This document shows positions 1 to 7,900 of a DNA stretch of 7,900 bases, in pieces. Source of the stretch: a virus (lineage: Duplodnaviria; Heunggongvirae; Uroviricota; Caudoviricetes); IMG/VR virus record IMGVR_UViG_2778261030_000021, positions 1-7,900 of that record, one strand, 5' to 3'. The notes beneath the pieces were generated by a model, which saw only the letters and a program-made list of their open reading frames with translations, did not search any database and was not told the origin of the DNA. Positions within the stretch are counted from its first letter, which is position 1. Each line of letters begins with the position of its first letter. The position numbers were made by a program, and so were the translations under genes.

Positions 1-744
1 GGAAGGTTTAATTACCTGCAACGTACCAAAATCACGCTCTTTGTCGTTCTTCTCTGCACGGGGTACGGATAAAAAGCCTTTTGCTTTTTTGTCACCGTCG
101 CCCACAACCAGATCGCTTTCTTCGGTTTCCGTGAAGGTGTCGCCAATCTCGCCCGTCAGCCATGAAAGGATGTCCACATCGGAAAAATCCACGATTTCCT
201 GCGTGGTGCGCGGGTACGCATAGACCGGATACAGCTTAATGCTCACCTCGTTAATCTGCGGGGTGCTGGTCTGTTCGCGTGCCTTACCCTCTTCACCGTG
301 GTTAACGGTCGCACCGCCAGCGGAAACAAGCTGCTTAAACTCGTTGCTGCTGATTTTCTTCACGGTACAGATGCGGCGCATGGTGGATTCATCCGTCAGC
401 ATTCGCATGATTTCGGTGTTCAGTTCGGGGATAACGGTATAACCACCATCAGCGGGAACGCCTGTACTCAATGCGCGGGTTTCACCTGTCAGAATGTAGT
501 GACGTAGTTCGGCGGGGTCAGTGGTCTGGCTGTTTTTGCCTGGTTTACTGCGCTCTTCGTCAGCAACGGCCTCAAGGCGGGAGATGTCTTTATCGAGTGA
601 TTCAGCTTTAGCGCGTAATTCGTCAAATTTTGCGCCCTCAGCATCGTTAAGGCTGCGGTTTTCTTTTTCCGCGTTCTCCAGCATGTCGCGCATCTGATTT
701 TTAATGGCGGTTTTCTGCTGGCGTAATTCGATTATTCTCGGCAT
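1..744 (-). CDS. Major capsid protein, HK97-fold family (N-terminal ~248 codons; 3' end beyond window start)
   Basis: Minus-strand frame is open from ATG 744..742 to position 1 with no stop, so it is absent from the ORF track. Own translation: MPRIIELRQQKTAIKNQMRDMLENAEKENRSLNDAEGAKFDELRAKAESLDKDISRLEAVADEER... then ...GGYTVIPELNTEIMRMLTDESTMRRICTV...INEVSIKLYPVYAYPRTTQEIVDFSDVDILSWLTGEIGDTFTETEESDLVVGDGDKKAKGFLS. An N-terminal coiled coil followed by these motifs matches my recollection of HK97-type capsid proteins. AGGA lies 8 nt upstream of the ATG. Confidence 0.65.
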   Translation of the reverse strand, partial: MPRIIELRQQKTAIKNQMRDMLENAEKENRSLNDAEGAKFDELRAKAESLDKDISRLEAVADEERSKPGKNSQTTDPAELRHYILTGETRALSTGVPADGGYTVIPELNTEIMRMLTDESTMRRICTVKKISSNEFKQLVSAGGATVNHGEEGKAREQTSTPQINEVSIKLYPVYAYPRTTQEIVDFSDVDILSWLTGEIGDTFTETEESDLVVGDGDKKAKGFLSVPRAEKNDKERDFGTLQVIKPS

Positions 745-781
745 AAAAAAAGTCCTGGGGTTAAGTAAGGAACTCCAGGAC
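745..781 (-). promoter_or_regulatory. Hairpin (stem 752-758 / 775-781, GTCCTGG/CCAGGAC) followed on the minus strand by U7 (751..745) and then the capsid ATG; the capsid Shine-Dalgarno AGGA lies inside the 3' arm
   Basis: Directly read inverted repeat plus T-run. The geometry is that of an intrinsic terminator, but it ends 1 nt before the start codon and sequesters the RBS. Confidence 0.45.
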
Positions 782-956
782 GCGGCAAAAACTCAACCGT
801 TTTTCATAAGGAAATCAGCAATCGCACCGATCGTTTTCCCGCCTGGTAATGAATATTGGCGAGAACATTAACAGGCGGAAAAGTGGCCCCAGCGTCCTGG
901 CACCACGGGCGAGAATAATCATGATTCAGTTCGGGTAAAATATGCCGATCCGCTCA

Positions 957-986
957 GTGAACAACGTGGAACAACCACGAACAAAT
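957..986. repeat. Three 10-bp-phased direct repeats: gtGAACAACg / tgGAACAACc / acGAACAAAt
   Basis: Directly read; copies begin at 959, 969 and 979. Lies in the ORF-poor region upstream (minus-strand sense) of the capsid gene. Confidence 0.5.
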
Positions 987-1003
987 AATTTACAAAAAAT
1001 GAC

Positions 1004-1025
1004 AAAAAGCCGGATTTCTCCGGCT
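1004..1025 (-). terminator. Intrinsic terminator after the 74-aa gene (7-bp stem AGCCGGA/TCCGGCT, 4-nt loop, U-rich tail on minus strand)
   Basis: Hairpin 1008-1025 and A-run 1004-1008 on the plus strand give hairpin-then-U on the minus strand, 11 nt downstream of the stop at 1036-1038. Confidence 0.6.
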
Positions 1026-1035
1026 GTATGGGTGC

Positions 1036-1260
1036 TCAGTCCCTGATCCCTTTCAGAAATTCTATCAATGCATCTATCTGTTCAGGATTTACCGCCAGCA
1101 TTTCACCGGATAGAGCACATCTCACAAAACCATGCTGATCCTTTTCAATCAGTGCGCCCGTCTCCAGGAATGCGCGGTAATCATTGATGCTCATCGTCTC
1201 CATGTTGTCAGCATGGTATTTATCACGCTGTTTTAATATCTCATCAAATTTCATCGGCAT
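1036..1260 (-). CDS. Hypothetical acidic protein, 74 aa
   Basis: ATG at 1260 with AGAGGA about 9 nt upstream; own terminator downstream. No family recognised. Confidence 0.5.
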   Translation of the reverse strand: MPMKFDEILKQRDKYHADNMETMSINDYRAFLETGALIEKDQHGFVRCALSGEMLAVNPEQIDALIEFLKGIRD

Positions 1261-1356
1261 TGTTTTTTTCCTCTGTTGTGTCTGTTTGTTTCAGATAGTA
1301 ACTATGCCTGACCGTGACGAAAACCCGGTAATGCGCCATACCGTTTCAACTGGTGC

Positions 1357-1380
1357 AAAAAAAGCCGGATTTCTCCGGCT
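1357..1380 (-). terminator. Intrinsic terminator after the PerC-like gene; near-identical copy of the 1004-1025 terminator
   Basis: Same AGCCGGATTTCTCCGGCT hairpin (1363-1380) followed on the minus strand by U7 (1357-1363). A 24-bp core is shared between 1004-1027 and 1360-1383. Confidence 0.65.
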
Positions 1381-1386
1381 GTTTGA

Positions 1387-1659
1387 TTAGCTGTCCTGGT
1401 AATTGCGCCATATTTCATCACCAGCACCATCTATACCCATTTCGGCATAAGTGCGATCGACTGCCTTTTTCAGGTCTCCGAAATTATCCGGCGGCTCCGG
1501 TGCCCTCTGTGCCTTCCTTGAACATTCCAGCCGTCGCATCGTGATGTGATGCCGTTCCTTGTCTGTCTCCACCAGCTGCATGACTTCACCCCATCGCGCC
1601 GCCGCCCTCCGGTAAAAGCCTTTCGCCTCCAGTTCCTCCGCTATGCGGTCATGTACCAT
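1387..1659 (-). CDS. PerC-family-like small transcriptional activator, 90 aa (start moved to ATG 1659; the track ORF begins further upstream at a non-ATG codon)
   Basis: MVHDRIAEELEAKGFYRRAAARWGEVM... resembles the AEKLExKGLWRRAA signature I recall for PerC/Pch proteins. Strong SD GAGGGGGGG immediately upstream of ATG 1659. Confidence 0.5.
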   Translation of the reverse strand: MVHDRIAEELEAKGFYRRAAARWGEVMQLVETDKERHHITMRRLECSRKAQRAPEPPDNFGDLKKAVDRTYAEMGIDGAGDEIWRNYQDS

Positions 1660-1669
1660 CGTCCCCCCC

Positions 1670-2080
1670 TCAGAACGAAATATCATCACCGTAAGGGTCA
1701 TCGCCTCCCGCTGGTGGCTGATTACCCTGTGTGCCTGTGGTTTTGCGTCTGTTCCCGCCTGGACGTGCCGCGCGGGCACTGATTACGCTGTCTGCGATAA
1801 CCTGCCAGCCCTGCCGCGTTTCTCCGTTCTGTCCGGCCCACTGGCTTACCTGCATCGTGCCGGATACGCTGGCAACATCGCCTTTTTGATGTTTAGCCAG
1901 GAAGTCGGCCTGTTTGCCAAATGCGATGACCGATAACCATAACGTCGCCTGTCCGTCCTGTGCCTGGCTGCATGGCAACGATACCGCCATACGCGCCAGC
2001 GTCATCGGTGTGCCCTTGCTGGTCTGTTTTACCTGCGGGTCGTCCACCAGCCGCCCGTAAGCGGCTATCTGTGCCGTCAT
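1670..2080 (-). CDS. ssb: Single-stranded DNA-binding protein (SSB-like OB fold), 136 aa
   Basis: Pattern GRLVDDPQV...TLWLSVIAFGKQADFLAKHQKGDVASVSGTMQVSQWAGQNGETRQGWQVIADSV aligns by eye with E. coli SSB (G.L..DPE...W..V.FGK.AE...KG..V..G....W.D.G.R), and the acidic tail DDPYGDDISF resembles the SSB C-terminal DDDIPF tip. ATG 2080 with GAGAGGTGG SD; start overlaps the upstream stop (ATGA). Confidence 0.75.
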   Translation of the reverse strand: MTAQIAAYGRLVDDPQVKQTSKGTPMTLARMAVSLPCSQAQDGQATLWLSVIAFGKQADFLAKHQKGDVASVSGTMQVSQWAGQNGETRQGWQVIADSVISARAARPGGNRRKTTGTQGNQPPAGGDDPYGDDISF

Positions 2081-2322
2081 AATTCCACCTCTCCGGTTTT
2101 AACGTTGATGGTTGTTACCTGTTCCGCTTCGGCAATCTCCCGTTCTGTCAGCGTGGCAAAGTTTGCCGCTGCTGTGGTCATGAATGCGCTTATCAGTTCG
2201 GGATGTGCTTTCGCGTATCCTTCCCCGGCGTTGCGGTCGATGATTTTTATCGCCACCCTCAGCCAGTGTTCTGTCAAATCAAGGGCGTGAGATTGTGGTT
2301 TTTTGGCGTGCTTCGTTGTCAC
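2077..2322 (-). CDS. Hypothetical protein, 81 aa (GTG start)
   Basis: Codon at 2322..2320 is GTG with GAGGT about 9 nt upstream; stop overlaps the ssb start. No family recognised. Confidence 0.45.
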   Translation of the reverse strand: MTTKHAKKPQSHALDLTEHWLRVAIKIIDRNAGEGYAKAHPELISAFMTTAAANFATLTEREIAEAEQVTTINVKTGEVEL

Positions 2323-2367
2323 AGGCTTTACCTCACAGCAATAAAATAAAATTTTTGCATTTCAACC

Positions 2368-2597
2368 CTTCACCTGTTCACCTTTTGCAATTTTCCCTTT
2401 TTATTCATGATGTTAAGGGGTGAACAGTTTCACAAAAACTATTCACCAACTGTTCACCACTGTTCACCCTTAAAGCTCAATAAAGAATCAAAAAGGTGAA
2501 CAGTGAATAGTTTGGTGAACAGTTCATAAATAACTGTTCACCCTATAATATACTGATATAAAAGACATTTATTGCAGGCTGAACAGTGGTGAACAGT
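2368..2597. repeat. Iteron array: at least 9 full copies of the octamer TGTTCACC / GGTGAACA in both orientations plus partial copies; putative replication origin (P4 ori/crr type)
   Basis: Directly read: TGTTCACC at 2375, 2451, 2461 and 2536; GGTGAACA at 2419, 2495, 2514 and 2589; partials at 2368, 2441, 2503 and 2579. The array starts 13 bp beyond the primase stop. As I recall, TGTTCACC is the type I iteron bound by P4 alpha protein. Confidence 0.7.
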
Positions 2598-2609
2598 TAT
2601 TCCATAAGT

Positions 2610-4427
2610 TTAATTTTTTCCATCGTCATTTGTGACCGATGCACATGATGGCATCCAGTCTTCTGAATCCTCTGTCAGGGTCACATTTGAACGCAAACCG
2701 TGCTTCGTTTTCCGTTTCATATACTCCCTGCCATATTCCGCCATTGCCCCCGGCATATCTTTACCGAAGCGCGTCAGTGTTACAGGTTTACCGAATCCGT
2801 GTGCCCTCATATATGCCAGATAGGCGTGATAAAGATACCTGCGCGGACTGAACGGAATAATTTCGGCATTACCCACTAACAGACCATCACACATTACCGA
2901 CGACATGAGATAGCCGCAGAAGTCCACCAGCGAATCGCCCTCGCGTTTTATCACCAGAGCTTCTTCTGATTTCTGCTGCTCATACAGCAGGCGTTTAGCT
3001 TCGTCCTGGTCAGAAAAACGAGTAAGCAGGTGGCGAATCACAACCGCCAGCTCTCCTTCTATTTTTTCTGCCAGCATGGGGTCGCGTTCGTTTTCCGGTA
3101 CAACCTCCGAAAAATTGAATATCACCCGACGACGTGAAATCCCCCCGCTGCGGTCACTGAATGACATGGCGTTATTGTTCACCGCCAACACTACCGCCTG
3201 AATGCGTGTTGAGTAGGGGGCTTTATGCTTCGGGTCGATTGCCACCTTGTCACCGCCTGTAATGGCCTTAATTCCTGCGCCATCACCAGCGTAACGGGTC
3301 ATATCCGGCATGATAATCAGCGAAAAGCCAACCACTAACGCGCGTTCCCTGGCATCTTCCAGCGCCTTCATGCTTGCCGATACCGTGTTGGCCTTACCCG
3401 CCAGCATGGTGCAAATCTCCGCCATCACGCTTTTACCACTTCCCCCTGGACCTGTTACCTCAATGAATAACTGCCAGTCGTACCGGTTCGCCAGCACCAT
3501 GAATAATGCAGCCAGTACGCGATCCGCCTTGCGGTCATTCTCAGCCACCGAACGGCGTAACCACTTCCAGAAATTCGGCGCATGTGTTGCCAGCGTTTCC
3601 CCCTCTGCTGGTGGGCTGAAAGGTAATTCACTGGCAATTAACAACCAGTCGTTTTTGTTATGCTCCCGAAAATTACCTGTTCTGGTATCAAATACCCCGT
3701 TACTGAATCCAATCAGGTTACGGGCTGTATTCCCCATTACAGGCAAACTTAACTTCATGGTATCGACCGCCGATTTAATGGCGTTCTGCGAATAGCTGAT
3801 CTCCGCATCAATGAAAATCTGTGCCATAGCTCGCTGTAATTCTTTATCCTGTACTGGCTCCCATACAACGCCGTTGTAATGGTGAACAGTGTCAGAGTCA
3901 GCATGAATCGCCAGTTCACCGCCATAATGTGCCAGGAGAACTTCGCCGCGTTGACTTGCTCCCATCTGGTTAAGCGCCAGTGATGAAGCGTTATCGTCTT
4001 TTACCCGCTCTTTTTTCTTTACAGGCAGTTCAACTACCTTTTTCTTTTCCGCCTGCTCTGCCCGTTCACGTTCCAGATATTCGCGCCAGTTCTCCCGTTT
4101 CTGGCTGTGCATTCCTTCAGGGTAATAATCAGCATCCCTGACACCTGCCGCTGCCAGTTTCTGCCCGATGGTATTAACAAGCCCCGGACGCAATAACCCC
4201 GCCTGGTAGAGACGCACCCGATAGCGTCCGTCCGGTACGATTTGCAGCTTATCCAGTTCGGCAAGTTGTTGTTCTCCAAGCCAGACAGGAGGCACGCTGT
4301 CGCCAGCCAGTCGCCCGTCCTGTTCCTGCCACTGCTTCGCATGTGCCCACGCATCATTACCCGCAAAAATGATGACTTCCGTCATTTTGTCACGCGGCTG
4401 GTGTTTTAAATTTGGCGCTTTTTTCAT
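2610..4427 (-). CDS. Replication primase-helicase of the P4-alpha / D5 (SF3 helicase) family, 605 aa (start moved from track position 4442 to ATG 4427)
   Basis: Walker A TGPGGSGKS within a D5-like region. The track ORF begins at a GTG (4442); the first ATG (4427..4425, MKKAPNLKHQ...) has GGAGAGAG upstream and overlaps the stop of the preceding gene (ATGA). Confidence 0.85.
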   Translation of the reverse strand: MKKAPNLKHQPRDKMTEVIIFAGNDAWAHAKQWQEQDGRLAGDSVPPVWLGEQQLAELDKLQIVPDGRYRVRLYQAGLLRPGLVNTIGQKLAAAGVRDADYYPEGMHSQKRENWREYLERERAEQAEKKKVVELPVKKKERVKDDNASSLALNQMGASQRGEVLLAHYGGELAIHADSDTVHHYNGVVWEPVQDKELQRAMAQIFIDAEISYSQNAIKSAVDTMKLSLPVMGNTARNLIGFSNGVFDTRTGNFREHNKNDWLLIASELPFSPPAEGETLATHAPNFWKWLRRSVAENDRKADRVLAALFMVLANRYDWQLFIEVTGPGGSGKSVMAEICTMLAGKANTVSASMKALEDARERALVVGFSLIIMPDMTRYAGDGAGIKAITGGDKVAIDPKHKAPYSTRIQAVVLAVNNNAMSFSDRSGGISRRRVIFNFSEVVPENERDPMLAEKIEGELAVVIRHLLTRFSDQDEAKRLLYEQQKSEEALVIKREGDSLVDFCGYLMSSVMCDGLLVGNAEIIPFSPRRYLYHAYLAYMRAHGFGKPVTLTRFGKDMPGAMAEYGREYMKRKTKHGLRSNVTLTEDSEDWMPSCASVTNDDGKN

Positions 4428-4723
4428 TTCTGCTCTCTCCACGCGGCAATCATGTTTTTCAGTTCCTGTAGTTTTTTATCAACATCCATACATGACACAT
4501 GGTTATTTCTGGAAAGCGGGATTTCCCGCCTGAATCTGCTAATAAAGATCTCCACGTTCAGCGAACTATGAAATGAATAGCCATCACGAATAAAATACAC
4601 ACGGTCAAACATCAGTTCTTTTACCGTTACTCTGTTACCGTTCTTATCCAGATAAATAGCGCCGGGGATAATTTTGGGGTGTGCATAACCGCTGGCAGTC
4701 AAGCCAGATAAATACGTTCTCAT
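4424..4723 (-). CDS. Hypothetical protein, 99 aa, translationally coupled to the primase
   Basis: ATG 4723; stop TGA overlaps the primase ATG. No family recognised. Confidence 0.55.
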   Translation of the reverse strand: MRTYLSGLTASGYAHPKIIPGAIYLDKNGNRVTVKELMFDRVYFIRDGYSFHSSLNVEIFISRFRREIPLSRNNHVSCMDVDKKLQELKNMIAAWREQK

Positions 4724-4729
4724 GATTAT

Positions 4730-5050
4730 TTATCTCAGATTTGAATCAGTATTCGCTTTCTCTATGGCATTTAATGCATCTGTGGCATTTTCAATGGTGC
4801 ACCGTAACGAAATATCAAACTGCCCAAGCATTGCCAGTAACAAGCCAATATTACCCATGTCAATGCGCATAGCCTTTTCGTCATATTCCTCATTTTCTGA
4901 CGCATGCCACATCAGGCTACCAATTGACGAAACAGCCATTGATATATTGTCAGTAGCCCCATCCGCAGCGGAATAAACCTTTTTAGCAATATCATGCTCA
5001 CAGTTAAAATGCGGATTAATCAGGTACTGGTAATTGGTCATGTCAGGCAT
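4730..5050 (-). CDS. Hypothetical acidic protein, 106 aa
   Basis: ATG 5050..5048 overlaps the end of the upstream small gene. Strongly acidic composition (about 17 D/E against 7 K/R). Confidence 0.55.
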   Translation of the reverse strand: MPDMTNYQYLINPHFNCEHDIAKKVYSAADGATDNISMAVSSIGSLMWHASENEEYDEKAMRIDMGNIGLLLAMLGQFDISLRCTIENATDALNAIEKANTDSNLR

Positions 5051-5246
5051 GGAACACCCCCTGACGAATACGGGCGGCGAATACCATCACGCAGCCATCA
5101 GGAGATTGCTGACGCGCGTCCTGTTCGCTGGTGGCCTCAATGGTAATCACGCGCGGTTGTGCCGTGCTCAGGGCGATAAAACGCCAGATGTATTTATTCA
5201 GGTTGTGCGAGTCCCGCCCTTGCGGGTGTGTGGTATGATTTAACAT
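5043..5246 (-). CDS. Small first gene of the leftward operon, 67 aa (possibly Icd/Kil-like; function uncertain)
   Basis: ATG 5246..5244 with GAGGT 5-6 nt upstream; MLNHTTHPQGRDSHNLNKYIWRFIALSTAQPRVITIEATSEQDARQQSPDGCVMVFAARIRQGVFHA. It is the C-terminal 67 codons of the 341-aa track ORF, which I reject as a whole. The Icd-like guess rests on position only. Confidence 0.5.
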   Translation of the reverse strand: MLNHTTHPQGRDSHNLNKYIWRFIALSTAQPRVITIEATSEQDARQQSPDGCVMVFAARIRQGVFHA

Positions 5247-5342
5247 AGCTACCTCGATATTCTTGCTATCGTTGGTGGTTAGACGCCCGGTTAGTGTTAG
5301 CGCACTGCCGGGTTTCGTCGTTTCTGCACCTTGCATCAACAA

Positions 5343-5396
5343 GGTGTTTAACACCAATTTAAGCCCTGGTGTTAAACACGTCAAGTGTTGAACACT
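5343..5396. promoter_or_regulatory. Three 13-bp palindromic operator-like sites (G/A)GTGTT-N-AACAC(C/T) in the divergent promoter region
   Basis: Directly read: 5343-5355 GGTGTTTAACACC (perfect), 5368-5380 GGTGTTAAACACG (one mismatch), 5384-5396 AGTGTTGAACACT (perfect). The third overlaps a plus-strand -35-like TTGAAC (5388-5393), with a weak -10 CATACT at 5411-5416. Confidence 0.55.
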
Positions 5397-5445
5397 TATT
5401 TTTTTTCCTGCATACTGCATTTGTTTTTTGTAAGGGGTACACAAC

Positions 5446-5625
5446 ATGGCGACAAAAGCAGTAAACGCAAAATCACAAACAGTTGCGGCAAGGGTTCCGC
5501 ATGAAGTTATGAACAATGTTGAGGCGGTAAAAATGCCTGGTGAAAGTACAGGGCAGTTTGTAACAGCAGCATTAAAGCGAGAAGTTGAATACCGCCAGCG
5601 TCGCAAGGCCAAAGAGCAGGAATAA
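5446..5625 (+). CDS. Small DNA-binding protein, probable ribbon-helix-helix fold, 59 aa
   Basis: Below the track's size cut-off. ATG 5446 with AAGGGG 8 nt upstream; MATKAVNAKSQTVAARVPHEVMNNVEAVKMPGESTGQFVTAALKREVEYRQRRKAKEQE. Beta-strand (TVAARVP), helix, Gly turn, helix pattern typical of Arc/CopG-type proteins. Confidence 0.5.
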   Translation: MATKAVNAKSQTVAARVPHEVMNNVEAVKMPGESTGQFVTAALKREVEYRQRRKAKEQE

Positions 5626-5682
5626 CCATCACCAGCGCCGTGGTGTAAGGTATTACGGCGCATTGCTATGCAGGACAACACA

Positions 5683-5856
5683 ATGACCGATAAAGAATTG
5701 ACCAAAACATTATCACCGGCACGGAAAAGACGGCGCAGAAAGATAGAGCATGAATCAGAAAGATTCGCGCCATGTGCTTTTGCCCTTGAGCAATTCCTTA
5801 AAGAGTACAGGGAAAAGCGCTCATTGCAGGTATGGCAACGAACTGAACCAGACTGA
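5683..5856 (+). CDS. Hypothetical Arg-rich small protein, 57 aa
   Basis: ATG 5683 with AGGA 7 nt upstream (the track's longer ORF starts at 5668). Contains ARKRRRRK; rare AGA/AGG/CGG codons. Confidence 0.4.
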   Translation: MTDKELTKTLSPARKRRRRKIEHESERFAPCAFALEQFLKEYREKRSLQVWQRTEPD

Positions 5857-5950
5857 TAGCATTGCCCACCAGCCTGATAGCGACTATCATTGCCGTTCTT
5901 ATGTTTGGGATCACACACACAAACGGCGCAGCGGGTTATCTGTTCAGAAA

Positions 5951-5979
5951 GGCGGCTCCATTTCGGGGCCGCTTTTTTT
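5951..5979 (+). terminator. Intrinsic terminator of the plus-strand two-gene unit
   Basis: Stem 5952-5959 GCGGCTCC pairs with 5965-5972 GGGGCCGC (one G-U), 5-nt loop, then T7 at 5973-5979. Confidence 0.7.
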
Positions 5980-6120
5980 ATTCCTGAAAAACCCCAATTT
6001 TGTTGTTTTTCAGTTTCACCAGGGCGAACGAATCCCCGCCCACGTTCGGGCGCATATTCAATCTTCATGGTTATATCTCTGTATTAGTGGATGTGTGGCG
6101 GCTGCGTGCCGCCAGCGTGA

Positions 6121-6309
6121 TTAATGAACTGCCTTGCAGCTATCCTTCCAGGCCAGAACCTCGGATAAAGACCAGCCAACGGAACGACCGCCAAGTTTAC
6201 GACGTGATGGGAATTGTCCGGCCTTTTCCAGGCGGTAGCGGCATGAGCGGCTAAGGCCTGTTAGCTTTTCGCATTCTTTTTCACGTATAAACCGATCAGT
6301 GCTTAACAC
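6121..6309 (-). CDS. alpA: AlpA-family phage transcriptional regulator / excisionase-like HTH protein, 62 aa (GTG start)
   Basis: EKLTGLSRSCRYRLEKAGQFPSRRKLGGRSVGWSLSEVLAW matches the AlpA signature I recall (TG.SRST.Y......FP....LG.R.V.W...E...W). GTG at 6309..6307 with AAGGGG 5 nt upstream; no in-frame ATG is available. Confidence 0.8.
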   Translation of the reverse strand: MLSTDRFIREKECEKLTGLSRSCRYRLEKAGQFPSRRKLGGRSVGWSLSEVLAWKDSCKAVH

Positions 6310-6590
6310 TATTGCCCCTTTCGTTTCTTAAAGAGTTATTTCGTGTTCTATTGCGTTGGGATGTGTCTGATTGTGTCAGGATGATTCAGAGTTGGCAAAT
6401 GTTGAGGACGTATGGTTTACAGAAAGAGGAATAATCAGGATAAAATCATTTAAATTCATGTTAATACAAAGGCATAAAATATTGTTTCATGCCTTTTTTC
6501 TCGCTATTTAAAGAGTGATTCGCTAGTGTATAAAAAACCAGTAACACATTAAAAATCAGCCACTTATAAATCTGTACACTTTTTCGCCTC

Positions 6591-6640
6591 TTGTTCGTAG
6601 TTGTTCCGCATTGTTGCTCATTGTTGCACGTTGTATCTGT
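6591..6640. repeat. Five 10-bp-phased direct repeats beginning TTGTT (TTGTTCGTAG / TTGTTCCGCA / TTGTTGCTCA / TTGTTGCACG / TTGTATCTGT)
   Basis: Directly read, exact 10-bp register, between the integrase stop and the alpA upstream region. Confidence 0.5.
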
Positions 6641-6649
6641 TCGCATATC

Positions 6650-6665
6650 CAGTATGCGCATACTG
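6650..6665. repeat. Perfect 16-bp palindrome CAGTATGCGCATACTG
   Basis: Directly read. Lies 18 bp beyond the integrase stop and is flanked by A/T runs. Confidence 0.55.
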
Positions 6666-6682
6666 AAAAAATACGAAAAAAA

Positions 6683-7900
6683 TTATTTTCTTCTGGCTAC
6701 TGGTAGCGTGGTTACGTTTTCATGTGTTCCCGCCAGTATCCCTAACCGCTCCATCCACATATCCAGCGCATTGCGTTTAGCATCCAGATAACGGGAATGA
6801 TTATAAACTCGCTGCATTCCTGGCATCTGGTGGCCTGTAAGCTGCTCCACGACATGCGGATCAACGCCTAAATCGTTCAGCATGGTTGTAAAGGTGCGCC
6901 GGATGTCATGCAGTGACCAGTGAGGGTGATTAAGCCTCCTGTGCGCTAATCTTCCATACTGCGATACGCTGGCCTCCTGTTTCACTGCCCCCAGCAATAA
7001 GCCCGTGTGCCTGTTCTGCTCCACCAGCTGCGTGACGAACGGCAGGATCGCTTCCGGTATGGGCCGGAATATTGCGACCTTCGTTTTGCTGTGCTCCTTC
7101 GGAACGGTCCATAGCATTTCCGTAAAATCCCACTCCCCGATCTCTGATAACCTCAGTTCTACCGTTCTGGCTCCGAAGACAATCAGGAGGCGGATTAACG
7201 CGACGTAGTAAGGGGAAAATATTTTTTTATCCAGCGCCTGCAATAACTCGCCCAGTTCTTTGGTGCTTAAGACACGTTCGCTTATATCCGGTTTTTTCCC
7301 AACGTCCGCCACGTTCAGATCGTCCAGAACGTTGCTGATTGCATAGCGCCGCCTACGGCAGAACTTAAGCGCCTGTTTGCACGCCTGTAGCACGAATCCG
7401 GCAGTAACAGGCGTTCGCTTTGCCACCTGGTCAAAACAGGCCAGCCAGTGCCGTAGCTCGCATTTATCCAGCGGCATAGCACCAATCTGCTGTATTACGT
7501 GATTATTAAGTCGCCTTTTCAGGGCGATATAATCCACGCGGTTTTCCTTTACGTAAGACTCAAGCCAGTAGGTGAGCGCATCGCCAACCGTTACGGGCTT
7601 TAACGCTTCCTGTACGGTGTAATTCATCTCATGACGTGGATTTTTCCCCTCAGCCAGCCATGCGCGGCACTGGGCGGCTTTTTCCCTGGCTGCTTTCAGA
7701 CTCAGATCAGGATAATTTCCCAGCTTAATACGTTCCGGTCGTGTCTCTCTTCCCGTTCCTGCCCTGTAAGTGAAATACCAGGTTAATTTCCCTGATGTTA
7801 AATATTTCACGCTCAGATTTCCGCCATCGCTATAAAACGTGTTTTTCTCCGCTGGCTTACCATGAAGTTTCCTTAGCAATGTGTCGCTCAGTTTGTTCAT
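6683..7900 (-). CDS. int: Tyrosine recombinase / phage integrase (P4-type), 405 aa
   Basis: 405-aa ORF starting with ATG exactly at the window edge (the true start could lie upstream). Integrase-like C-terminal region including HDIRRTFTT and the tail ...MQRVYNHSRYLDAKRNALDMW with candidate catalytic Tyr. Confidence 0.88.
   Translation of the reverse strand: MNKLSDTLLRKLHGKPAEKNTFYSDGGNLSVKYLTSGKLTWYFTYRAGTGRETRPERIKLGNYPDLSLKAAREKAAQCRAWLAEGKNPRHEMNYTVQEALKPVTVGDALTYWLESYVKENRVDYIALKRRLNNHVIQQIGAMPLDKCELRHWLACFDQVAKRTPVTAGFVLQACKQALKFCRRRRYAISNVLDDLNVADVGKKPDISERVLSTKELGELLQALDKKIFSPYYVALIRLLIVFGARTVELRLSEIGEWDFTEMLWTVPKEHSKTKVAIFRPIPEAILPFVTQLVEQNRHTGLLLGAVKQEASVSQYGRLAHRRLNHPHWSLHDIRRTFTTMLNDLGVDPHVVEQLTGHQMPGMQRVYNHSRYLDAKRNALDMWMERLGILAGTHENVTTLPVARRK

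Follow-up and report, generated by a model that had tools for sequence, protein, structure and literature searches.

Phased GAACAA arrays in a capsid-forming phage-inducible chromosomal island of Escherichia coli as probable operators of its AlpA protein

Introduction

Which protein reads a pair of short GAACAA repeat arrays that stand at distant loci of one phage satellite, in opposite orientation, one upstream of the capsid gene and the other between int and alpA? The arrays lie in a 7,900-nt window (the whole stretch of DNA analysed here; positions 1 to 7,900 of IMG/VR record IMGVR_UViG_2778261030_000021), which is a capsid-forming phage-inducible chromosomal island (PICI) of Escherichia coli of the EcCIEDL933 type (10.1101/2022.09.08.507074), EcCIEDL933 being also known as CP-933C or OI-51 (PMC3378721). 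This assignment follows from the element of E. coli 2313 (L001; the other loci compared bear numbers of the same form), which is 97.6% identical to the window and continues beyond it into packaging genes, so that a full packaging operon is visible downstream of the capsid gene (protease, portal, connector, HNH, terS and terL). AlpA is the key switch of Gram-negative PICIs, including the capsid-forming islands reported across multiple species and genera, and sequence comparison, a structure model and analogy with characterized systems together indicate that the arrays are probably cooperative operator arrays of the element's own AlpA.

Results

Two phased arrays in opposite orientation

The question turns on six features of the window, whose major genes all lie on the minus strand.

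955-995, plus strand: array A, three perfect GAACAA units and a degenerate TTACAA, between a terminator and the capsid operon
6591-6636, minus strand: array B, five units in strict 10-bp register
1-744, minus strand: 5′ part of the HK97-type major capsid gene (Pfam PF05065, PHROG 10), opening the packaging operon that lies downstream of array A
1008-1025, minus strand: intrinsic terminator, AGCCGGAGAAATCCGGCT followed by a T run; array A comes directly after it as transcription proceeds
6121-6309, minus strand: alpA, encoding a 62-amino-acid (aa) AlpA-family winged-helix protein, the proposed binder (Pfam PF05930, E=5e-18; PHROG label 'excisionase and transcriptional regulator')
6683-7900, minus strand: int, encoding a P4-type tyrosine integrase with an arm-binding domain (Pfam PF13356 and PF00589)

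The perfect units of array A occupy 959-964, 969-974 and 979-984 of the plus strand in 10-bp steps, and a longer step, of 11 bp, leads to the degenerate TTACAA at 990-995; the array is 215 bp upstream of the capsid ATG (744). On the minus strand, array B reads GAACAA (6596-6591), GAACAA (6606-6601), CAACAA (6616-6611), CAACAA (6626-6621) and ATACAA (6636-6631), with a GAACAG beside it, out of register, at 6642-6637. Array B comes after the int stop (6683) and before the alpA start codon (6309), from which it lies 282-327 bp upstream. The preliminary description of this DNA had therefore located both arrays, their opposite orientation and their neighbouring genes correctly; for array A it quoted two units where three perfect ones are present.

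Within each array all units run head-to-tail in one orientation, about one helical turn apart, as in the operators of recombination directionality factors (RDFs). The phased pair GAACAA-N4-GAACAA (GAACAANNNNGAACAA) has 3 matches in the window against 0.01 expected, and 3 or more matches arise in none of 200 dinucleotide shuffles. The lone GAACAA hexamer, by comparison, is not enriched (9 occurrences against 5.7 expected), so the signal is the phasing. Tandem Repeats Finder independently reports a period-10 array at 6601-6634. The idea that the sites face one side of the DNA and would be bound cooperatively gains support from the strict 10-bp register.

Conservation of the register and of the ACAA core

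Arrays A and B are the strongest members within the window of a larger set of arrays. The set was surveyed with a motif matrix built from the strong arrays, whose scores were compared with the shuffle maximum; de novo detection of periodicity is noisy in GC-rich loci, and motif- and matrix-based scans, which are partly circular, were used instead. Pooling 33 distinct units yields the consensus c-g-t-G-(G/A)-A-A-C-A-A, with information concentrated in seven of the ten positions: the ACAA core, invariant in the consensus, holds 1.8-2.0 bits per position and the first three (spacer) positions 0.3-0.4 bits, and the flanks are variable. Degenerate units (ATACAA, ACACCA, AAATAA) hold the register, a further property of RDF operators.

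Array B exists in at least five diverged sequence versions, which keep the 10-bp register and the ACAA core and change in the flanks and 4-nt spacers. In L004 the capsid allele has 63% protein identity and the region upstream of it has diverged, apart from array A, which stands out there as 31 bp of perfect conservation (TTTTGTAAATTATTTGTTCGTGGTTGTTCCA). All capsid homologues retrieved, which reach down to 62% identity and belong to two leader families, have array A upstream, and the terminator precedes it in all aligned variants, even with a different upstream gene. The stretch that carries it (940-1035) matches 413 of 5426 complete E. coli genomes. One 10-mer, CGTGGAACAA, is identical in array A, the distal attachment (att) arm and one array-B variant.

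Among more diverged elements, L125 (AlpA 66% and Int 76% identical) has phased CGAGCT/CGAACC/CGAACA, likewise oriented, some 125-155 bp upstream of alpA, a site that scores near background with the E. coli-trained matrix, and keeps TTGTTCG arrays in both att arms. The locus of another AlpA relative (P0018/L021) shows no interpretable arrays, and the matrix scan found no GAACAA arrays in P4 or CP4-57. A contig scan with AlpA returned three loci, two of them distant and uninformative, and a homologous-protein search returned few intermediate AlpA relatives. The arrays are real, phased and conserved.

Independence from the replication module

The TGTTC of the arrays recurs in the origin iterons of the element. 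Two features of its replication module matter here.

2610-4442, minus strand: D5-type primase gene
about 2370-2600: iteron-rich origin with TGTTCACC repeats

One suggestion of the preliminary description was accordingly that the arrays could be degenerate initiator sites forming a second ori or a locus of the crr type, which is known from P4. Besides the TGTTC common to the arrays and the TGTTCACC iterons, the first unit of array A, GTGAACAA, is one mismatch from the iteron, and P4 does have a distant crr. Both arrays persist, however, in elements with unrelated replicases, namely DUF927 (O157, L002), a RepA-type helicase (L003, L004) and other D5 types, and their retention alongside three unrelated replicases shows that they are not iterons of the primase. 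With the array matrix the iteron region reaches a score of 2.4, below the shuffle maximum, and the iteron-like first unit (GTGAACA) is lost in L004 (CACCGAACAA) and L009 (CAGCGAACAA). Neither a match to the P4-type iteron consensus nor co-occurrence with a cognate initiator is found, and an initiator role for the arrays is refuted to the point of having next to no chance of being right.

Arrays in the attachment arms and around alpA

The int-proximal att arm of L001, just past the window end, contains in order two copies of TGACTACACC with a 12-bp period, phased GCACAA/CTACAA/AAACAA/GAACAA, a second AAACA-type array and the junction. The far end of L001 has the same composite, a doublet followed by AAACAA/GAACAA/ACACAA. 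Outside the window, motif arrays adjoin TGACTACACC doublets in both arms of L001, L012, L015, L016, L125 and EcCICFT073, as RDF operators adjoin integrase sites, and the core lies at about TGCTGTTAT (copies at four chromosomal sites compared). A location in the att arms is that expected of an excisionase.

Two further candidates for the set lie within the window.

6341-6377, minus strand: array B2, four degenerate phased units (GACACAA, GACACAT, AACGCAA, AACACGA) upstream of alpA
1275-1290, minus strand: doublet of two units (AAACAA and ACACAA), with the ribosome-binding site of a 74-aa open reading frame (ORF) directly downstream

Array B2 reaches a three-unit matrix score of 12.3 (shuffle maximum 8.3), is conserved in two sequence versions and overlaps a promoter-like TTGCCA-17-CACAAT. 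The doublet at 1275-1290 reaches a two-unit score of 19.7 (shuffle maximum 16.4), and an AAACAA/ACACAA doublet accompanies the 74-aa ORF in L015. These scores are suggestive of further array members, weakly so for 1275-1290, and the call of B2 is made weaker by a matrix trained on the strong arrays. In EcCICFT073, the shuffle maximum is reached only by arrays of the two att arms and of the region upstream of alpA, and is narrowly missed by the equivalent of B2.

The promoters that such arrays might serve can be placed by conjecture. The last unit of array A is 16 nt upstream of TATTTT (TTGTTC-16-TATTTT) and could give the –35 element of an activator-dependent promoter. Upstream of alpA, a conserved block, ACTGGTTTTTTATACAC, would place array B at roughly –70 to –125, and TATACA near 6527-6532 is a candidate promoter position.

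The alpA leader also contains a conserved hairpin on the minus strand (6466-6501; GGCATGAAA-caata-TTTTATGCC followed by TTTGTATT), whose 9-bp stem remains intact in L004 and L059 despite an A-T to G-C change. Placed between array B and alpA, the hairpin resembles an attenuator or a terminator, and it could bear on helper-raised alpA expression. The stretch that separates the int stop codon from array B includes a perfect 16-bp palindrome, CAGTATGCGCATACTG (6649-6664), which array-B versions v1-v3 have and v4 and v5 lack.

AlpA fold and response of the alpA promoter

The window encodes a small protein, AlpA, that is predicted to be a winged-helix excisionase and hence an RDF. The AlpA model (predicted local distance difference test, pLDDT, 87) is a winged helix, and its best structural match is the GIsul2 excisionase 8c3t (template-modelling scores 0.79/0.86, 39% identity), followed by RdfS, Pukovnik Xis and TorI; no publication for Protein Data Bank entry 8c3t was found. 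RDFs bind tandem repeats one helical turn apart, cooperatively and head-to-tail, with low per-site specificity (PMC7498355, PMC11963761, PMC2951348).

Published work on EcCICFT073 bears directly on this AlpA type, as the Int and AlpA of that island are also those of L003, and this AlpA is 95% identical to that of the window. EcCICFT073 AlpA activates its own promoter (Fillol-Salom et al., PMC6092414), is needed for induction and transfer and, when over-expressed, suffices for excision and replication (PMC6092414); AlpA is likewise essential for EcCIEDL933 induction (10.1101/2022.09.08.507074). The PalpA-lacZ plasmid pJP2038 combined with pBAD-alpA in DH5alpha was activated without Int or any PICI present (PMC6092414). 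The pJP2038 primers map to 3128-3583 of L256, a 456-bp fragment that contains arrays B and B2 and no doublet. Since AlpA alone activates this fragment, an AlpA-responsive cis-element must lie within it, and the arrays are its only conserved repeats. Arrays B and B2, which fall inside this AlpA-activated PalpA fragment, may be promoter operators of the Apl and Cox type, the promoter positions being conjectural. Of the binders named in the preliminary description, AlpA is the one favoured by the att-arm arrays, the response of the PalpA fragment and the winged-helix fold. The PICI literature searched holds no description of these arrays or of a mapped AlpA operator, and no AlpA-site data were found in the Shewanella CP4So and Pf4 XisF4 papers.

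A protein of the host or of the helper phage could instead occupy the arrays, be it an OmpR/PhoB-type response regulator, a nucleoid protein or a helper-encoded inducer of alpA. Winged-helix response regulators bind direct repeats of 10-11 bp. The region around array B is AT-rich, H-NS/Hha control alpA in related prophages, and no helper-dependent inducer of alpA had been identified by 2018 (PMC6092414). Arrays sit, however, beside Int doublets in the att arms, where an element-specific RDF is expected, and arrays of five to six units are atypical for response regulators. They are absent from P4 and CP4-57, which have the same host, and AlpA alone activates the PalpA fragment (PMC6092414). We consider a host or helper binder unlikely.

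Terminator-like hairpins lie downstream of array B and before the capsid ATG, and antitermination of the Pseudomonas AlpA type was considered and rejected: that AlpA is non-homologous and Q-like. Its binding element, GGGACG between –35 and –10, is used by a Q-like AlpA of >140 aa that loads onto RNA polymerase, a protein other than the 62-aa AlpA of the window.

Arm doublets and the integrase

The doublet that accompanies the arrays in the att arms consists of TGACTACACC (or TTAACTACACC) twice with a 12-bp period, co-oriented, one pair per arm (16938-16960 and 2417-2439 in L001). It occurs in L001 and 20 other loci, in the att arms only and never at arrays A or B, with centres roughly 140 and 90 bp from the core as estimated from alignments; L002-L018, L125 and L256 are among its carriers. 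The P4 record has 12-bp tandem pairs, TTGGGGGCAT, in both arms, annotated 'attP arm sequence repeat' and beginning 16 bp upstream of int, and CP4-57 has TAGGCCCA twice in the position matching the P4 arm repeats. In helper-embedded PICIs (HE-PICIs) a 'doubled motif', tgTGTATTGCantgTGTATTGCa, lies in the same orientation at distances of 81 and 132 bp from the centre of attP; it was called unique to HE-PICIs, and its binder was left open between Int and AlpA (PMC10111431). Despite that statement of uniqueness, an analogous doublet of different sequence (TGACTACACC) is present in the window-type element.

The integrase, another binder on the list of the preliminary description, could in principle use the arrays as arm-type sites for its N-terminal domain, with A and B as extra regulatory Int sites. 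Int carries an Arm-DNA-bind_3 domain, and motif arrays are co-oriented on both att arms, as arm-type sites are. Lambda-type arm sites can be tandem at about 10 bp. The genes int and alpA are always linked in the retrieved loci and are inseparable by distribution. The separate TGACTACACC doublet, with its P4- and HE-PICI-like layout, nevertheless fits the role of Int better.

A partial separation is offered by L162, whose Int is 40% identical to that of the window and whose AlpA homologues are 60% and 48% identical: the doublet is changed there to the HE-PICI form, TGCAATACACA, and array A is perfect. The doublet thus follows the integrase clade and the phased array does not. Arrays A and B lie 1.3-7 kb from the core, and Int is not needed for the response of the PalpA fragment to AlpA. 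With more than 20 units in the element, the arrays exceed what an Int tetramer could use; four doublet half-sites per attP would suit such a tetramer, and the array units would suit a filament-forming accessory protein. Restriction to the att arms and covariation with the Int clade, the marks of integrase arm-type sites, are seen in the doublets and in neither A nor B. On sequence and by analogy, the TGACTACACC doublet is therefore the better candidate for the Int arm site, and binding of the arrays by Int is rather improbable.

In L162, a helper-embedded PICI, two tandem AlpA-family genes directly follow int (6640-7215), with a terminator between them; one, of 77 aa, shares 48% identity with the window AlpA, and the other, a 102-aa ORF, shares 60%. 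A second AlpA-family gene, 35% identical, is found near the distal end of L125 and L104.

Array A and the packaging module

The common int-alpA-replication backbone pairs with at least three late modules: the HK97-type capsid with HNH and terminase, as in the window, which is the sole module that brings array A; a lambda-E-type capsid with a gpD-like decoration protein and a Nu1-like TerS; and a ClpP-protease-capsid fusion. In L012, L015, L016 and L256, AlpA is identical or 95% identical to that of the window.

Array A strictly accompanies the HK97-type capsid/terminase module, whatever the int/alpA type, which would also be expected if array A alone were a packaging signal (cosB/pac-like) for the satellite small terminase and its likeness to the other arrays were coincidental. 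Small terminases often recognise phased repeats. The CGTGGAACAA units of array A, however, occur also in elements without such a terminase, such as EcCICFT073, and array A heads the operon, about 4.5 kb from terS in L001. In HNH-type cos phages, cos is expected next to terS, and L001 has a 123-bp gap there; the paper on capsid-forming PICIs gives no position for cos. A packaging signal is very unlikely.

The remaining regulators encoded in the window lie between the two arrays, among the following features.

1036-1260, minus strand: 74-aa ORF (orf74)
4424-4723, minus strand: DUF4222 gene, 99-aa product
minus strand: PerC-like gene and gene for the single-stranded DNA-binding protein SSB
minus strand: Icd-like gene

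Judged by length, family and island position, and by these features alone, the 99-aa DUF4222 protein corresponds to RgdR (ECs1581). RgdR is the CP-933C/OI-51 regulator that raises LEE1/type III secretion and lowers motility in O157:H7 (PMC3378721). Both RgdR and the PerC-like protein, the latter proposed as a binder in the preliminary description, are encoded in the window, and DUF4222 is present in most E. coli loci. L008, however, has arrays A and B without PerC, and L015 has PerC without array A; L018 has att-arm arrays and no DUF4222 match was found there. RgdR bound DNA non-specifically in vitro (PMC3378721), and neither family is known to act at att sites. It is highly improbable that either protein is the binder.

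The terminator hairpin AGCCGGAGAAATCCGGCT with its T run is used twice on the minus strand, at 1008-1025 after the 74-aa ORF and at 1363-1380 after the PerC-like gene. The 74-aa ORF with its own terminator resembles an inserted cassette; several relatives have PerC, terminator and then array A directly. Two hairpins follow array A on the minus strand of the capsid leader. One, GTCCTGG-16 nt-CCAGGAC with T7 (745-795), ends at the capsid start codon. The other, at about 855-880, has a GACG tetraloop (GTGG..CCAG-GACG-CTGG..CCAC; in the other leader family GTGGC-ACTCA-GACG-TGAG..GCCAC) and is followed by a conserved CCGCCTG; covariation across the two leader families is weak.

Discussion

We propose that AlpA monomers would bind head-to-tail, one per helical turn, on cgtG-(G/A)AACAA units, and that successive AlpA units would form a short cooperative filament that bends the DNA. 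At the att-arm arrays, AlpA would cooperate with Int on the doublets and so promote excision. At array B and the weaker B2 it would raise alpA transcription, positive autoregulation having been measured for this AlpA type. At array A, it would probably switch on the HK97-type capsid/packaging operon once accumulated.

Taken one step further, a single 62-aa excisionase-family protein with one 10-bp-phased code may be the master switch of the satellite, governing, as AlpA rises, first self-amplification (B, B2), next excision (att arms) and last the capsid/terminase operon (A); we put this forward tentatively, as a possibility short of an even chance. If true, array A would be the missing regulatory link from helper-phage sensing to satellite capsid production. 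It is improbable that the helper-phage inducer of Gram-negative PICIs itself acts through array B.

Several observations weigh against the proposal that AlpA reads the arrays. Array A travels with the capsid module and not with alpA: elements whose packaging module is of the lambda-E or ClpP-capsid type lack it even when their AlpA is identical, so that late genes are not generally under AlpA control. EcCICFT073 AlpA left Pint-lacZ unchanged (PMC6092414), despite a four-unit array upstream of int; the Pint-lacZ primers did not map onto the EcCICFT073 stretch L256. [quoted passage not shown] Arrays A and B are oppositely oriented relative to transcription, and sigma-70 promoter scans found nothing clear next to either. 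Finally, int and alpA are linked in every locus that carries an identical AlpA, only L162 separating them in part, so their linkage precludes a clean covariation test between Int and AlpA.

Operator function for AlpA remains the reading we prefer. The 10-bp unit and the map of arrays make AlpA excision, autoactivation and capsid-operon control directly testable, and annotators could use the motif as a cis-element that marks this PICI lineage and the position of its att arms.

Comparison with known systems

The name AlpA is shared with a Pseudomonas protein and is all that the two have in common: the latter has eight helices, a 21Q-like fold and >140 aa, compared with the 62-aa winged helix of PICI AlpA. 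The type I iterons of P4 ori/crr (TGTTCACC, bound by alpha) likewise contain TGTTC, and some window iterons are also 10-11 bp apart; unlike the arrays, iterons have a different consensus and mixed orientation, are tied to the replicase and occupy one locus beside the primase gene.

In HE-PICIs and P4, the tgTGTATTGCantgTGTATTGCa motif and the arm repeats resemble the window-type doublets in forming a 12-bp tandem pair per arm, co-oriented and at a constant spacing from the core (in HE-PICIs, 81 and 132 bp, PMC10111431; roughly 90 and 140 bp here, by estimate). The HE-PICI doubled motif, the closest published item found, is the counterpart of the neighbour of the arrays, not of the arrays themselves. 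Between arm doublet and core, P4 has 10-bp phased TCCAAG/TCCGAG/TCCAAA (L024, 4040-4069 and 3966-4010) and CP4-57 has phased TCCGAA/TCCGAT (L146, about 150-290); these TCCGA-type units may be the Vis/AlpA sites of that clade. The P4 annotation 'ori type 2 repeats' covers three 10-bp units at 9176-9205, intergenic and upstream of vis. P4 and CP4-57 therefore have a layout like that of the window element with other motifs, the (G/A)AACAA motif being specific to this AlpA clade.

Tandem RDF sites that adjoin Int arm-type sites are known as X1-X1.5-X2 of lambda Xis and I1-I5 of KplE1 TorI, in the int-proximal arm and overlapping the int promoter region (PMC2951348). The window element differs in having arrays on both arms and also kilobases inside the element, and the lambda Xis sites mismatch the motif; cross-recognition by lambda Xis was rejected on an X1-X2 score of –6.8 with the array matrix.

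The closest parallels are 186 Apl, P2 Cox, P4 Vis and ICEMlSym RdfS, likewise small winged-helix proteins (PMC7498355, PMC11963761). They bind direct repeats spaced by about one helical turn, head-to-tail and with cooperativity, and do so at att as well as at promoters, by which excision is coupled to transcription; action at both kinds of site is described for Apl and Cox (PMC7498355) and for RdfS (PMC11963761). Apl and Cox are mainly repressors, whereas PICI AlpA stimulates the promoter of its own gene, and no counterpart was found in these systems of an array that heads a capsid/packaging operon. By analogy with them, the arrays of the window element have the sequence-level features of dual-purpose RDF operator arrays.

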